Source: Nitrosopumilaceae archaeon (GTDB lineage: Archaea > Thermoproteota > Nitrososphaeria > Nitrososphaerales > Nitrosopumilaceae). From it: a stretch of DNA of 64,000 nucleotides. This document shows, piece by piece, positions 5,833 through 63,696 of the stretch (within the stretch, counting starts at the first letter, position 1; every line of letters starts with the position of its first letter). The translations under genes were made by a program, and so were the position numbers. The notes under the pieces are model-generated. The model was not told where the DNA came from. It saw nothing but the letters and a program-made list of their open reading frames with translations, and searched no databases. The DNA lies in NCBI GenBank assembly GCA_965208905.1, contig OZ242365.1:800001-864000 (forward strand). Reading direction: 5' to 3'.

Positions 5833-7202
5833 TGTGTTGCATGTTGCGTTACATATTATGAAGCTTGGCTCCATCGGTTCCTACTGCAAGCACGGGGGTT
5901 CCCGCACCTACAATTACACATCATGCCAGAGGACGACAATGCATGAAGCATCTCGTTCCCCGGTCCGTGCTTGACGCTTCCCAGGGGAGCTAACGCAAGA
6001 ACCCTCCACGTCCAGACACCTCTTGTACAATGGGTGCTGCCGGTGTAGTCCGGCAAATTTCGTAACTTTAGTTGGTCATGTATGGCCCCCCGGCCAAGTT
6101 TCTTCAGCCCCATATCTTCTATGTTTGAGCCCGCATTGCAGTCGGCATGATATGTGTAGCCACACTTCCTGCACAAGAACTTTCTGCCATCCCGGTTGTC
6201 CTCATGCATATAGCCGCACGAGCAGCACCGCTGACTTGTATATGCTGCCGCAACCCAAACTATCTCGCCAGCCAACTTGTACTCCAATAGAGCAGCGAGC
6301 AGCCTCCAACACTGCTCCAGAATGGCCTTGTTCAGCCCAGACTTCTGCGCAACGTTTTTGCCGGGTTCTTCTTCCGTGCCTTTGGCGGACTGTACCATGT
6401 TTTGTATGGGAAGTTTCTCAAGGGCTGCATGTGTGGCGCTGTTAGATATAATGCGTGATATCTTATGCGTGATGGTCTTTCGCATGTTTGCCACCTTGCG
6501 TTTGTTCTTGGCGGCACGTTTGGCGGCTTTCGCCCACCGTCGGGAGCCGGGCTTGCGATTCGTATGCTCCGGCTTCTGCCTGTATGATGCTATCTTTTGC
6601 GCCTTTGAGGCCGTCTTCTCGGCGTTGTTCATGCGGCGTGCCACCTTTTCAGGTATAATTATTACCCAGTCAGGTGTGGTCACATTACCGACATTCCGGT
6701 CTATGCCAATAATAGTCGGTTCCGTCACAACTGGCTCCTCATCAGGTATATTACAAGATATGGTAATTCTCCACCCGCCATCCGGTAGTTGAAACCGTTG
6801 TGCAGTCTTGTATCGGTAATTCAAGACGGGAAACTCCCGCGACAATTTAATCTCGCCCATCTTGGCTATCCTGATTGTACGTGTATCAGTGAAGTGCGCC
6901 TGACCAGTAGTGTTATCATGCGTTATCGTCAACGGGATGGAGATATGACTTCCATGTTTCTTAAAGTGCGGCTCACCAAACTCTACCTTAGGTTCGAGGC
7001 CAGCAGCCTTCAACCTCTCTGTCTCCACATATTGGTCATAATGCCTGCCCAGATCATATAATATTTGGCGCGTCACCCCGGATATGGACTGACTCATCCA
7101 ACGCGGACCCGAACGGTTGCGCAAGTCCGTATATCAGGCGTTTATTCTACCGCGCGTAGTGTTGACCCTCCCAACTCGACGGTACTCTTCCTTGAAGATT
7201 TC

Positions 7203-8246
7203 TGTATTATGTCGAAATTATTTCGCCTAGTCATCGGTGTCCCTCTCCATCCATTCTAAGTCACTCTTCCTGACATCATCTGGTACTTTTTTGTTGTGAA
7301 ATGCCTGTAGCGGGGTCTCGCCATTGTTTATGTCTAAAGACCAGTGCAGTCGCACCTCGTTGTAGTACGCGACAAACTCCGCTAGGCTGCCAAAATGACA
7401 TAGTTCTTCTTCCAAGGTGCGGTGGAACCGTTCAAGCTTGCCGTTTGTTTGTGGGTGGTAGGGGCGGGTGTTGATCAACTCAATACCCCGGTCAAGCAGC
7501 TCTGCCTCAAATATAGTGGGGGTCCATGATTTTGCAGGAATCTTTCTTCTCACACCCACAAAGCACGATCCGTTGTCGGAGAGTATGGTGGCCGGGGTTC
7601 CAAACTCAACAATGCTATTTTGCAGGACTGTTACCGCGTTCTCGGATGTGGCCCCCTTGAATATCATGGCTCCAACCACACATCTTGACGCATCATCAAG
7701 ATATGTGATTAATTGGTAGCCTTGAAAACGTGGATCTTTCATCGCATGCCAGTCCGTATGCCACATCGCATTGGAGTATCTGCGCTCATAGCGTATCCAT
7801 TTACGCCTGCGCGATTTTGCTGCAGATAGAGTGACCATATTGTTTTCTTTCATGATTGTGTATACCGTTTTTTCACTTATTTGTATGCCCTTGTGATTTA
7901 AGTACTTGGTGATCCTTGTGACGCCTGCTGGCATTATACGATGTGCTGCTAGTACGACGTTGGTTTGCTCCTCGGTGGGAGGAATCTTGGGTCTGCCTGG
8001 CATTTGTAGTGTGGGAATCTTGCCCGTTGCACGATACATTGCCCAGAGTTGTTGTACGCGTCTCTGGCTAATCTTCATCTCTGTAGCAATGTGTGATGTA
8101 CTACTACCTTTCCTGCATTGTCGAATGATATAATCTATCTGCTTCTGTGTCAGATTGACTCTCATGGGTTTGCGTGATCTATATAGACTAAAATATTCTT
8201 TGGTTGGCAGTCTAAAGTTAGGGCGAACTAATTTCCGCACAATAGA
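7203..8246 (-). mobile_element. IS481-family insertion sequence (variant A), 1044 bp
   Basis: Imperfect 25-bp TIRs TGTATTATGTCGAAATTATTTCGCC / TCTATTGTGCGGAAATTAGTTCGCC; 15-bp direct repeat TTCCTTGAAGATTTC at 7188-7202 and 8247-8261. Confidence 0.93.
7227..8210 (-). CDS. IS481-family DDE transposase (rve integrase core)
   Basis: HTH, then WHTD / SDNG / PQTNGKLERFH; start CTG 8210 or ATG 8165. Confidence 0.9.
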   Translation of the reverse strand: MPTKEYFSLYRSRKPMRVNLTQKQIDYIIRQCRKGSSTSHIATEMKISQRRVQQLWAMYRATGKIPTLQMPGRPKIPPTEEQTNVVLAAHRIMPAGVTRITKYLNHKGIQISEKTVYTIMKENNMVTLSAAKSRRRKWIRYERRYSNAMWHTDWHAMKDPRFQGYQLITYLDDASRCVVGAMIFKGATSENAVTVLQNSIVEFGTPATILSDNGSCFVGVRRKIPAKSWTPTIFEAELLDRGIELINTRPYHPQTNGKLERFHRTLEEELCHFGSLAEFVAYYNEVRLHWSLDINNGETPLQAFHNKKVPDDVRKSDLEWMERDTDD

Positions 8247-8560
8247 TTCCTTGAAGATTTCCAATAGTTTGTTATACCCATACCTATCCAAGCCGGCCTG
8301 TCCAGCCAACATCCCCTCCTTGAACCCCTTACGGAATCTAACTCTAAATGTATATGTGCGTAACGCCATTAATGTATAGTACGGTCCACACACTTAAAAA
8401 GATAATTGATTATACAGAACCCGACTTTGCGGGAGGAACCAGTTCACGTAATAATAGCGAGGTTAGTATACGTAGGAATACAGTCAGACAAGATTATGGA
8501 CAGTTTGCCTGATGAATTCGAAGGCATGTCGCCAAAACATCACACCTCAAGTCTGGACTC

Positions 8561-34258: not shown

Positions 34259-34295
34259 AAAGACTGGAGTTACAACCATACAAGACGAAAAGTAG

Positions 34296-34347
34296 ACTGG
34301 GCTGACAGACTATCTTGGAAAGTGTAGATAGCTTTGCGGGAGGAACC
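34296..34347 (+). mobile_element. Orphan right end of the TnpB element family (candidate omegaRNA remnant)
   Basis: ACTGGGCTGACAGACTATC (18/19 to 40512-40530), then CTTTGCGGGAGGAACC identical to 40557-40572. Confidence 0.7.
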
Positions 34348-38755: not shown

Positions 38756-38958
38756 CAGATTCTGTAACAGATATTAACTAGCAATCTTACATGTATGGTA
38801 TGGTCCATCGTTCCATGCCAGTCTGTTTTAGTATTGAGCAGTACAAAACAATAGAGGCATACGCTAAGAAGCATGGCATGCTTAATGCAAGCCAAGCTCT
38901 AGAAGAGTTACTAGAAAGGCGGTAGGCGCCTCTCTGCTTATTTTATTATATGTTTAAT

Positions 38959-40572
38959 GGTTCCTCCCGCAAGGACGGGTGGTGGTTGATGTGTGTTGGA
39001 TAGTGTTAAATACGTTATTGAACCGTACTATGTAGTGGCATCAGTAAAAAATAGCAGGGCAGTAACACGTCCATACACAAAAAATTTGGGCATGCGACAT
39101 GTGTTTGAACATGTCAGGAAGGTGGCAGAAGTGGCGTACATTATAGCAGATAACACGGGGAAGAATACCTATGGTGTTAATGCATTGATGTATAGTACAA
39201 TGCGCGGTCCTGACCCCAAAGTATATTCGTCCATAACGCAGACCGCCATACGGGACGGGGTTGCCGCCCATAAAACGTACAATACAAAGGCTGCGCAGGG
39301 CACGAAGGTGTCTGAGCCCGTGTTTCGCAATCCGGTTGTAAAGTTAACAAATCAAAGTTGGAGGCTGAATCCGATAGCGGGTGGATATATGGCTATTGCA
39401 AATGTTGGCTCATCAAAACACCCACATATGATAGCAATTCCCGTCTCTTCAGATGTGGTACGTAAAATAGGGCAAAATGAGTTGGGCGAGTTGTGGATCA
39501 CGCCAACCACATATACCATTACATATTACAACAAAGTGCCCAAGGTTGAAAAGTCCCACCCACACGGCAAGTCAGAGATTATCGAACTACTTACGGATGT
39601 GGGCTGTGTGGGCGGTACACCAAGGGATGTAATTGGCATAGACATCAATGAAAAGAACATCACCGTAGGTGATAAAAACACGATGGTACGATTTGATCTA
39701 TCATACACGATACAGGCCATTGAGGAGGCAAAGACTGAGGATACAAACAATACGTATACCCGTACACATGATAATATCGCATATGCGGCACGTACCGGAA
39801 GGCGCGTTGTACACAAGAAAGAGGAGGAGCGCAGAGAAAAGCAACAAGTCACACATGGTGGTCACAAGTTACACAGCAAACTCAAACGCAGATACAATAA
39901 ACTCAAGAGGGAGGGCAAACACAAGAGGGCCGCCGAGATAAAGAAGCAGATGAGCAGATGCATATTGAGCATACCACATAACCACACAAAATCAAGGAAG
40001 AATGCTAAAAAGCGCAGGATGGCCAAAGCCATGCGCCACCACGAACACGTGCTGAATGTAATAGCATTATGTATAGCACAGTGGGCCGCACAATCCGGGT
40101 GCTTGGTGATGTTGGAGGATTTAACCAATATATCGTATGGTTGGCAGAAGAATGGGAAGTTTGGCCATAATATGCGTCGCAGGTTACATTCTGCCATGAT
40201 GCGAAAAGCATCGAATTTAATTTATGAAAAGTCCCGGTTTTTGGGAGTGGAGGCATTACATATGCGCCCACACAACACATCCAAGTTGTGTGCTGCATGC
40301 AGAACCACATTAACTGGAACTTATCATAAAAAAGACTGCATCCGCTGCCATACGGTTGGCGTAGATCGCGACGTCAACGCAGTGGAGAACATACGGCGAA
40401 CAAGCGCCGTATCCCGATATGGTCGTAAGGTTTCGGCCAGTCTGGGCGAAGTCCGTCGTGGTGTGGATGTAATCCTCGATCCCACACCACTCATACAGGG
40501 TTGCTGGAGCAACTGGGCCGACAGACTATCCCGCGTGGCGATGTGACATCACCCGACTTTGCGGGAGGAACC
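38959..40572 (+). mobile_element. TnpB-carrying non-autonomous element 2 with 23-bp inverted termini
   Basis: GGTTCCTCCCGCAAGGACGGGTG vs reverse complement of right end GGTTCCTCCCGCAAAGTCGGGTG (21/23); no transposase, no TSD seen. Confidence 0.82.
38993..40546 (+). CDS. tnpB: TnpB/Cas12f-like RuvC nuclease, apparently intact
   Basis: VIGIDINE (RuvC-I), VMLEDL (RuvC-II), TSKLCAAC..CIRC zinc finger, DRDVNAVENI (RuvC-III); start uncertain. Confidence 0.85.
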   Translation: MLDSVKYVIEPYYVVASVKNSRAVTRPYTKNLGMRHVFEHVRKVAEVAYIIADNTGKNTYGVNALMYSTMRGPDPKVYSSITQTAIRDGVAAHKTYNTKAAQGTKVSEPVFRNPVVKLTNQSWRLNPIAGGYMAIANVGSSKHPHMIAIPVSSDVVRKIGQNELGELWITPTTYTITYYNKVPKVEKSHPHGKSEIIELLTDVGCVGGTPRDVIGIDINEKNITVGDKNTMVRFDLSYTIQAIEEAKTEDTNNTYTRTHDNIAYAARTGRRVVHKKEEERREKQQVTHGGHKLHSKLKRRYNKLKREGKHKRAAEIKKQMSRCILSIPHNHTKSRKNAKKRRMAKAMRHHEHVLNVIALCIAQWAAQSGCLVMLEDLTNISYGWQKNGKFGHNMRRRLHSAMMRKASNLIYEKSRFLGVEALHMRPHNTSKLCAACRTTLTGTYHKKDCIRCHTVGVDRDVNAVENIRRTSAVSRYGRKVSASLGEVRRGVDVILDPTPLIQGCWSNWADRLSRVAM

Positions 40573-40648
40573 TGCGACATAGCGACTCCTTACCAAAGTA
40601 TGATTCTATGGCAAAGGGCTTAAAGATATGTTTACTTCATAATTGTAT

Positions 40649-62369: not shown

Positions 62370-63696
62370 ATATATAGATCACATAGTGTCCGCATAGACC
62401 TGACACGCCCTCAGGCGCGTCACATATCCAAAATACGGAACTCACAGCGGTTCGTGTATAATTGGGCCGTAGAAAAGTTGCTGGTCGACCCCACACTCAC
62501 CGCATACGATCTCCAAAGTGAGTTTACCAAACTTCGCAGATGTACACCGCACCTACAGGAAGTGGAGCGCATATACCAAAATACGGCCATCAAGCAGGCC
62601 CGCACTGCTGCGGATGTCTCAAACAAATACGGCAACGGCAAACTAGGTTTCCGCTCCAGAAAGCGCGACAATACAAAGGCAGTATCATGTGGTGTACAGC
62701 CGCGATTTGTGGACAACAAGCATGCGTCATTGCCGGGCCTTGGTGTTGTTGAGTTGCCTGAGGAGCAGCCATACCAATTTCCACACAACTGGCTGTATGG
62801 CTCAAGGTCTTCCCGTTTGGTATGTGTAACACCAAAGTCGTGGATACATTATACGCCAAGTGACCACATATACAGGCTGCACATAACATATGACGTACCT
62901 ACACCCGAACGGCGCGCCAAAACCGGTGTTGTTGCCGGCATAGATGGGGATAACAAATCCAACGGTTGTCTGTAAGACAGACCACAACACTTCGTGTATA
63001 ATATCGTACGACACGGCAACCGCATTCCGCACGAACCGTACATGGAATGATGATGCGCGTCGCACCATATCACACCGCAACAAGCATTCCCGTACAACAT
63101 ACAAGATGAAACGTAAGCGAGAAAAGTACAATCGTGGTAATGCGAATGACCGCGAGTATGCGGAGTGGCTTCTAGCCAAGAAGATATGCGAGGGCGTGGA
63201 TGTGATATATGTCGAGCAGCTCCACCTTGAGGCCATGAGCAGGCGCGGTGGTAGGCACAAAAAGGGCATGAATCGTGGTATGCGGTTCATTCGGCATTAT
63301 GCAATACTGCGAAAGATACGCATTATCGCAGAGCGGTTGGGCATCCGTGTAGTAGAAGTGAATCCAAAACACACAAGCCAGGAGTGCAGTGTGTGCGGCT
63401 ACACAAACAAGGAGAATCGAAATGGGGAGATGTTCAAGTGTCTCAAATGTGACCACATGGCAAACGCCGACGGCAATGCGTCGGTGAATATAATTCAACG
63501 GGGGACCGGTATGAAGGTTCCCGCGGGGGAAGGAATAGTCCTCGAAAGGCGTGAAATGGGCCGGACCCGGAAGCCACCTGTTTGTGCAGTTCCGGACGCC
63601 AGACGGCGGCGTGAGAATCAAGCGTGCAATCGACCCAAAACATCAAGCGTCATGAAGCACCTGGGAATGTACGCGTATGTTACGTATGTTCAGTAA
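62370..63696 (+). pseudogene. tnpB: TnpB, frameshifted
   Basis: Frame open from ~62370 (IYRSHSVRID...QRFVYNW) without an ATG; frameshift in RuvC-I (VAGID / GITNP, ~62945); YVEQL, TSQECSVCG..CLKC, NADGNASVNI. Confidence 0.85.

Follow-up and report, generated by a model that had tools for sequence, protein, structure and literature searches.

Within a 64,000-nucleotide stretch of archaeal DNA (G000:C1:800001-864000, here called the window; G000 is a single-contig genome of 2.21 Mb, 45.6% GC and 99.6% completeness), the 1614-bp element at positions 38959-40572 carries a single gene for a TnpB-like nuclease between terminal inverted repeats (TIRs). We propose, with a probability of roughly 80%, that this element arose from an IS6-like DDE transposon and is non-autonomous, its ends having been kept and its transposase gene replaced by tnpB together with a putative omega-RNA. 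The ends, the variable target-site duplications (TSDs) of 8-9 bp and the deletion derivatives of its family are those of a DDE element. Because the element holds tnpB only, it had to borrow the enzyme of an IS6-like transposon in order to move. Positions below are those of the window unless genome coordinates are named.

The two repeats span 23 bp each, match at 21 of 23 positions, both contain the sequence CCCG-N6-CGGG and enclose one intact open reading frame (ORF) of 517 aa, whose stop codon lies 26 bp from the right element end. No transposase gene is found between the ends. The original prediction, made from the letters of the window, had described this arrangement correctly, and it was also right that this copy has neither a transposase nor a TSD. 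The features of the element and its immediate flanks are as follows.

38959-38981, + strand: left terminal inverted repeat (tnpB-upstream end), GGTTCCTCCCGCAAGGACGGGTG
40550-40572, read on the - strand: right terminal inverted repeat, GGTTCCTCCCGCAAAGTCGGGTG
38993-40546, + strand: tnpB, intact, 517 aa, TnpB/Cas12f-like RuvC nuclease
38951-38958, + strand: the 8 bp adjoining the left end, TGTTTAAT, in the place of a left TSD, with the right counterpart missing
38948-38951, + strand: ATA+T, this copy's instance of the motif WTA+Y, a candidate target-adjacent motif (TAM) of TnpB, directly 5' of the (former) 8-bp target duplication
40353-40572, + strand: candidate omega-RNA scaffold, overlapping the tnpB 3' end and the right end
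40573-40592, + strand: right flank, the predicted omega-RNA guide if the RNA is read through, placed by position only and by analogy with characterised TnpB systems

The ends recur far beyond this locus. The 14-mer GGTTCCTCCCGCAA, with up to two mismatches allowed, occurs five times in the window, where 0.22 occurrences are expected and where none of 100 shuffles reached five. In the whole genome it occurs 75 times, mainly in inverted pairs with a spacing of about 1.61 kb (type B, below) or about 1.51 kb (type A, below), which ties the repeat motif to mobile elements and argues against random scattering. The element at 38959-40572 belongs to a family that we call type B, of which the genome holds 12 full-length copies (1608-1644 bp, 88-96% identical to copy 38959-40572), a further copy truncated at its 5' end, two with internal deletions (496 and 585 bp) and two stubs of the left end. 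Nine of the full copies lie between TSDs of unrelated sequence, which are perfect 8-mers in eight cases and a 9-mer with a single mismatch in the ninth, and both internally deleted copies have perfect 8-bp TSDs. Three full copies, including 38959-40572, have none; the original prediction saw no TSD, but the family as a whole does produce them. A second family, type A, has nine full copies, with TSDs in six of the nine. Variable 8-bp TSDs together with inverted ends constitute the footprint of a DDE transposase and not that of an IS200/IS605 or IS607 enzyme.

The exact boundaries of the element can be read from an unoccupied site. Contigs from RNA libraries (runs X2 and X3 of one study) show no difference from the left flank up to 38958, continue with nine other letters, TATATCCTA, and then with the sequence that starts at 40573. 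Because the flanks are joined in these contigs, the site is empty in a near-identical strain, and the element ends exactly at the repeat tips. In the empty-site contig ..CCTA precedes the 40573 stretch, so that TA again stands before T. The nine extra letters and the absent TSD suggest that a little neighbouring DNA was lost during insertion or later, and a 17-bp adjacent deletion would fit both. Recombination between copies would be another way to lose a TSD, and a search of the other TSD-less copies for a reciprocal partner found the swapped 8-mers in none of them. The RNA-library data consist of contigs only, and their uncovered parts and depth differences carry no evidential weight. A contig from a further run, X1, joins 39152 to 40493, skipping 1340 nt, and continues into another flank; it is an internally deleted type B derivative of a related strain, with the 3' region kept, like the two deleted copies of this genome.

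A search for an autonomous copy leads to an IS6-like DDE element, decayed in G000 and intact in congeners. At genome positions 926302-927837 lies a 1536-bp element with the same repeats, and the first 27 nt of its transposase-upstream end are identical to the left end at 38959. What remains of its gene encodes a zinc ribbon and DDE motifs, is interrupted by at least three in-frame stops, and matches the IS6-like proteins of the genome (tblastn E 1e-10) and the NCBIfam IS6 model (E 2e-3). This decayed IS6-like element adjoins a type A TnpB element, with 8 bp (AGCGTTGA) between the two (genome positions 924780-927837), and the pair has one common outer 8-bp TSD, TTAAACTC, as if it had moved as a composite unit via its outer ends. 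Since the cognate transposase is dead, we infer that the copies in this genome, 4-12% diverged, are now immobile fossils; the absence of an intact cognate enzyme fits this divergence among the TnpB copies.

The repeat motif is confined to the genus, in that, among 41 genomes, many copies occur in eight of the nine congeners and only single chance-level matches elsewhere. Relatives of the decayed IS6-like element are found in seven of the nine congeners. In congener G009, locus L039 is a 1442-bp insertion sequence (IS) with perfect 25-bp repeats (GGTTCCTCCCGCAAAGACGGGTGGT), a TSD (CCAATTTG) and an intact 388-aa ORF, whose product has an N-terminal SWIM finger, a zinc ribbon and a DDE domain. 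This protein scores 31.8 bits against Pfam DDE_Tnp_IS240 (cut-off 27), and its best NCBIfam model is transpos_IS6, at 77 bits, below the cut-off of 125. At L118 in the same congener an intact 402-aa transposase lies between GGTTCTATTGCAAAGTCGGTTGAT repeats, and the same 24 nt bound the B-like TnpB element L045. Transposase-bearing copies of the congeners have perfect 8-bp TSDs at eight of 16 repeat pairs (from 22 loci); the TSD of L119 is CAAGCCAG, an 8-bp target duplication. Two inverted copies of a 1716-bp IS6-like sister IS lie 5.5 kb apart in G009 (L117, 1775594-1777309; L120, 1782773-1784488), with reverse-complementary 8-mers, GGCGCTGG and CCAGCGCC, on the same side of each copy, a footprint expected of intramolecular replicative inversion. 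Congener TnpB genes that are more distant, both A-like and B-like, are likewise bounded by repeat variants with 8-9-bp TSDs. At 18 of 19 A-like congener loci the window 14-mer missed the ends because the repeat variants differ, and the ends were found by local alignment; in congener G007, about 340 bases of an 893-bp repeat pair are N.

Two other accounts of the mobility deserve consideration. IS1341-type elements lack TIRs and TSDs, rely on a Y1 TnpA and insert on the 3' side of a fixed site of 4-5 nt, which also acts as the TAM; IS607 elements use a serine recombinase TnpA and have neither TIRs nor a TSD. If the element were an ordinary member of the IS200/IS605 (IS1341-type) or IS607 group, the 23-mers would be subterminal hairpins for the Y1 or serine TnpA, which would suit a tnpB-only element with a CCCG-N6-CGGG palindrome in each end. 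However, the TSDs are variable 8-mers, the inverted repeats are genuine and occupy the outermost positions, related repeat variants such as GGTTCTCTCGAAAATACGGTTGATG lack the palindrome, and searches of the 99.6%-complete genome, with positive controls, returned neither a Y1 transposase (PF01797) nor a serine recombinase (PF00239), so that we give this account next to no chance. The other account, in which the TnpB-like protein is itself the transposase and its RNase-H-fold RuvC domain cuts and joins the ends and makes the 8-bp duplications, we consider very improbable. It would explain why G000 has no intact cognate transposase, why TIRs and 8-9-bp TSDs accompany six of the seven TnpB families examined and why tnpB is under purifying selection, but these ends also enclose elements with a DDE transposase gene and no TnpB, and TnpB-less deletion derivatives have TSDs. 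Furthermore, the unrelated TnpBs of types A and B use one repeat type, related repeats track IS6-like or IS1595 transposases, and TnpB is dispensable for transposition in studied systems (PMC13565253).

A derivative of an IS6-like transposon, moved by an enzyme supplied in trans, is thus the explanation that we prefer. Most of what the original prediction had outlined on this point is borne out: its postulated TnpB family, with symmetric ends and moved in trans, now has an IS6-like DDE element with the same ends as the likely helper, the repeat motif belongs to mobile elements, the empty site places the boundaries at the repeat tips, and the ends do not fit IS605 or IS607.

The cargo of the element appears to be a nuclease of the expected type. 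The sole Pfam match of the 517-aa protein is PF07282 (Cas12f1-like TNB domain; 28.9 bits, cut-off 26.3), and NCBIfam guided_TnpB gives only 26 bits against a cut-off of 100. The RuvC triad, in GIDIN (D217), LEDL (E375) and DRDVN (D460), is invariant in 16 homologues down to 37% identity; in the zinc finger, CxxC..CxxC between RuvC-II and RuvC-III, the same 16 homologues have C433 and C436 invariant and C449 and C452 conserved to at least 90%. With an AlphaFold model of the protein (pLDDT 68), each of the top 15 Foldseek matches is a Cas12f or a TnpB (E 4.6e-14 to 9e-8, about 500 aligned columns, low TM scores of 0.22-0.28), including E 4.6e-14 to AsCas12f and 1.1e-10 to TnpB 8h1j; Fanzor structures are also among the top matches. 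A sequence search of solved structures returned only weak Cas12f/TnpB matches (E 0.03-0.5), plus spurious integrin matches, and among 5.8 billion proteins only 30 relatives were found, the named ones being "transposase" of Cenarchaeum sp. metagenome-assembled genomes. By catalytic triad, zinc finger, profile and modelled fold, the protein is a predicted TnpB/Cas12f-type RuvC nuclease. The ratio of nonsynonymous to synonymous substitution rates (dN/dS) of tnpB is 0.23 in type B (nine intact copies, 35 pairs, range 0.15-0.29) and 0.17 in type A (four genes), and these low values indicate that the nuclease was under purifying selection while the family spread. The mobility can nevertheless be explained without TnpB.

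An omega-RNA in the 3' region is plausible from the pattern of sequence variation. Variation within the element is lowest in its last 130-220 nt (pi 0.035 at element positions 1441-1560, as opposed to about 0.10 elsewhere), third-codon diversity falls to 0.092 in this region from 0.159, and its paired columns vary less (26/126) than its unpaired ones (39/99). RNA-library contigs cover 40172-40561; transcript ends and strand are not readable from contigs.

The flanks of the copies hold a one-sided motif. Copies were oriented by tnpB, and 14 type B copies were scored (12 full and two deleted), leaving aside the two left-end stubs (CTA and ATA) and the copy without a left end. In 14 of 14, WTA+Y lies directly 5' of, and reaches into, the TSD: position -11 is T/A, -10 is T, -9 is A and -8, the first TSD base, is C/T, each without exception, and the mirror positions beyond the right TSD contain under 0.3 bits. 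Given the local flank composition, WTAY in 14 of 14 copies has a probability of about 1e-21, a post hoc figure. Type A copies have TT at -11/-10 in nine of nine, G (six), A (two) or T (one) at -9, and T at -13 in eight of nine, so that TT(G/A) occurs in eight of the nine scored; the copy abutting the decayed IS was not scored. A further TnpB family of the genome, T1, has G at -9 in nine of ten copies, with two copies of unassigned orientation and five shorter matches unscored. Among A-like subfamilies of the congeners, recurrent triplets are TTA (3/3, G005), TTG (3/4, G001/G006) and TCA (3/3, G009/G002). The original prediction had pointed to TTAAT in the left flank as the lead to a TAM; the conserved motif is instead WTA, 8 bp further out, before the TSD. 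On an empty allele, the sequence that matches the predicted guide would be preceded by this conserved motif, which is the arrangement that a TAM needs.

We propose that these components could act together as follows. A transposase provided in trans would bind the repeats and insert the element by an IS26-like copy-in reaction. The omega-RNA, if read through the right end, would have the TSD and the right flank as its guide, and the WTA directly 5' of the left TSD would serve as the TAM. On an unoccupied allele, TAM, TSD and right flank would be contiguous, so that the TnpB of each copy could cut its own empty site, and repair from the occupied copy would then restore or spread the insertion. 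Retention would be limited to insertions that land behind a TAM. It is also possible that the target choice of the transposase and the TAM have co-evolved. That TnpB acts as a TAM-dependent cutter of its own empty site seems to us an evenly balanced proposition. More tentatively, and with somewhat less than even odds, we suggest that TnpB is not idle cargo, and that a TAM outside the TSD (WTA in type B, T[A/C]TTG in type A) decides the survival or placement of insertions made by the DDE enzyme. On this view, TnpB and the replicative IS6-like transposon would together make up a homing system of two enzymes and would be the prokaryotic equivalent of Fanzor-bearing TIR transposons.

The one-sided motif might also be unrelated to TnpB, reflecting either an asymmetric target preference of the DDE transposase or selection for a TATA-like promoter element supplied by the flank about 45 nt upstream of the tnpB start. 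We regard this as less likely than not, though several points speak for it. Transposase-only copies show a weak T/G excess before the TSD (TGT, TTG, CTT, TGG, TTG, CCC, TGC, GTG), in G009 GCA stands there both in the B-like TnpB element and in the autonomous IS that shares its repeats (n=1 each), the flanks upstream of the motif are A/T-rich, and the B-like family of G005 has no common motif (five copies: GTG, TTA, TTA, TGC, CAA). Yet types A and B have a common repeat tip and nonetheless differ in their motifs (T[A/C]TTG and WTA+Y), the motif stands at one exact distance in all 14 type B copies, which is tighter than promoter spacing requires, and the T1 motif (A.T.G) does not resemble a TATA box. 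The target preferences of DDE enzymes are, moreover, usually palindromic, whereas the mirror positions here are uninformative.

Our preferred account, an IS6-like derivative, and the evenly balanced reading in which its TnpB uses a TAM outside the TSD also have to carry several counterweights, some of which are those just named. No intact cognate transposase is left in G000, so that trans-mobilisation is reconstructed from congeners; the focal copy itself is one of those without a TSD; and trans-mobilisation and TnpB cleavage are both, for these elements, predictions from sequence. A replicative transposon leaves no empty donor site, so that any benefit from empty-site cutting must come via other chromosome copies or other cells. 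The TAM reading of the one-sided motif is post hoc, and apart from the motif-less G005 family, the B-like elements of G009, G007 and G002 have GCA, TGG and ACA, respectively, before the TSD. WTA is absent from one side of transposase-only congener copies (0/8) and present once on their other side (1/8), and this control comes from more GC-rich genomes, with an orientation by longest ORF that is unreliable. As for the omega-RNA, the 3' region has a predicted fold of -85.1 kcal/mol versus -41 for the corresponding antisense region of the left end, with a z-score of only -1.63; it contains one double compensatory change, too little covariation for a test; and no Rfam family matches it. The higher contig depth at the 3' end may stem from k-mers common to the copies, or from DNA.

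The other TnpB genes of the genome fit the same general picture. G000 has seven TnpB-like ORF clusters (76 ORFs of at least 150 aa), and in six of these seven families TIRs occur together with 8-9-bp TSDs; for T4, neither TIRs nor TSDs were shown when the seven were examined. Families T1 and T3 have the repeat tip GGGAATTATA in common with 2.1-kb IS1595-type elements of the same genome, and T2 has [T/G]GAACTGTCCCA in common with ends beside IS6-like genes. With some seven TnpB families and no Y1 or serine transposase in the genome, it may be that TnpB in this lineage normally travels in DDE shells, both IS6-like and IS1595. The 13 other IS6-like genes of the genome were considered as partners for the 38959 element and rejected, as their ends differ, being GGAACTGGTGCATC.. 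or [T/G]GAACTGTCCCA.., the latter often found at one end only. These ends were located by Smith-Waterman and motif searches, an earlier seed-based search having found nothing useful.

The same genome also has a 3.6-kb transposon (L021, genome 1337692-1341293) with 50-bp inverted repeats and a 414-aa IS6-like SWIM/DDE transposase, which carries a DNA methyltransferase-like ORF (353 aa) and a 281-aa ORF and of which an identical second copy starts at 1851328; it is possibly a mobile restriction-modification unit. Within the window, a partial T3-family copy of about 1.3 kb with 87% identity lies at 62389-63684. Three further features of the window belong to, or lie inside, elements of types A and B.

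5876-8440, - strand: element 1, of type A, whose repeat tip is the same but whose TnpB is unrelated; the motif at 8427-8440 is its tnpB-upstream end
7203-8246, 1044 bp: IS481-like IS inside element 1, with a 339-aa rve-type transposase frame and imperfect terminal repeats
34270-34347, - strand: decayed type B right-end remnant, with the repeat tip followed by GATAGTCTGTCAGCCCAGT, a string from the type B 3' region

The original prediction held that the repeat motif of the focal element also bounds element 1, upstream of its tnpB there and downstream here. The first part stands, as the motif is present at the tnpB-upstream end of element 1; the second does not, since at 38959-40572 the motif is at both ends. 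Its remark that element 1 encodes a very different TnpB is accurate, as the type A and type B proteins have no BLASTP similarity (best E 1.4). The IS481-like IS at 7203-8246 has a 15-bp target duplication, TTCCTTGAAGATTTC, and about 15 further copies in the genome, 99.7-100% identical; with copies so nearly identical it looks currently active, unlike the TnpB elements. Elsewhere in the genome, a 74-bp type B left-end stub (1116780-1116853) and the 5'-truncated type B copy (161563-163066) are flanked by the 8-mers CGGTATAA and CGGCATAA, which match at 7/8 positions. The stub adjoins an 8.2-kb repeat that is also found at 140415-148679, and it seems that one type B copy was split by rearrangement into the stub and the 5'-truncated copy.

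In the prevailing view, what TnpB does is linked to scarless excision catalysed by Y1 or serine transposases. In the lineage described here, DDE shells are the only vehicle in which several TnpB families have spread, the nuclease is under purifying selection, and a family-specific one-sided motif stands at the place where a TAM would have to be if the guide is to match the empty site. These data provide candidate TAMs for two new, very divergent compact nucleases, as well as a defined pair of transposase and mini-element, and the system would allow us to ask whether RNA-guided cutting helps DDE transposons too.

The packaging itself is not new, and on this point the original prediction was out of date. 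Altae-Tran et al. (2023, PNAS; PMC10691335) described six DDE-associated TnpB branches (DDE-1 to DDE-6) with inverted terminal repeats, as well as solo TnpBs that have ends identical to those of transposase-bearing copies and were presumably moved in trans. The element at 38959-40572 resembles these in that tnpB lies between TIRs with its 3' end near one of them (26 bp here; the criterion there is about 250 bp) and in that its repeats are shared with a DDE-transposase-bearing element, decayed here and intact in congeners. It differs in its partner, which is an IS6-like SWIM/zinc-ribbon/DDE protein, whereas the main text of that study names IS630, and in the 8-9-bp TSD with a one-sided motif before it, which we did not find described there (PMC10691335). 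A 2026 review gives ISL2, IS630 and IS1031 as the DDE partners of TnpB and argues that DDE transposons gain little from it (PMC13565253). Our literature search for TnpB with the IS1595 or IS6 family, or with DDE, TAM and TSD together, did not find this arrangement; many subscription papers and all supplements were outside its scope. To the extent of that search, what appears new here is the IS6-like partner, the purifying selection on tnpB and the one-sided motif before the TSD.

In the IS6 family, target duplications are 8 bp, a few long members (1230-1460 bp) have an extra zinc finger, and the main text of a survey of the family mentions a passenger gene in one member only (Varani et al. 2021, PMC7986276). 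Like IS6/IS26 elements and their miniature inverted-repeat transposable elements (MITEs), the present elements have short repeats starting with GG, an 8-bp duplication, TSD-less copies and the inversion signature of copy-in transposition (PMC7986276). They differ in that the partner transposase scores below the NCBIfam IS6 cut-off (77 versus 125) and has an N-terminal SWIM finger, and in that the derivative keeps the ends and swaps the transposase for tnpB. With the IS1341 group of IS200/IS605 they share the single tnpB and a conserved 3' region reaching the right end, the site of the omega-RNA in studied elements. Unlike that group, they have TIRs and TSDs, their genome has no Y1 transposase, and the TAM-like motif is parted from the left end by the TSD; unlike IS607, they have TIRs and TSDs in a genome with no PF00239 match. 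Fanzor-bearing TIR transposons of eukaryotes offer a further parallel, a TnpB homologue riding as a passenger in a TSD-making DDE transposon, and their TAM is said to include the 5' TSD (PMC13565253). In the present elements, by contrast, the TSD is variable, the conserved motif lies directly outside it, and the host is an archaeon.

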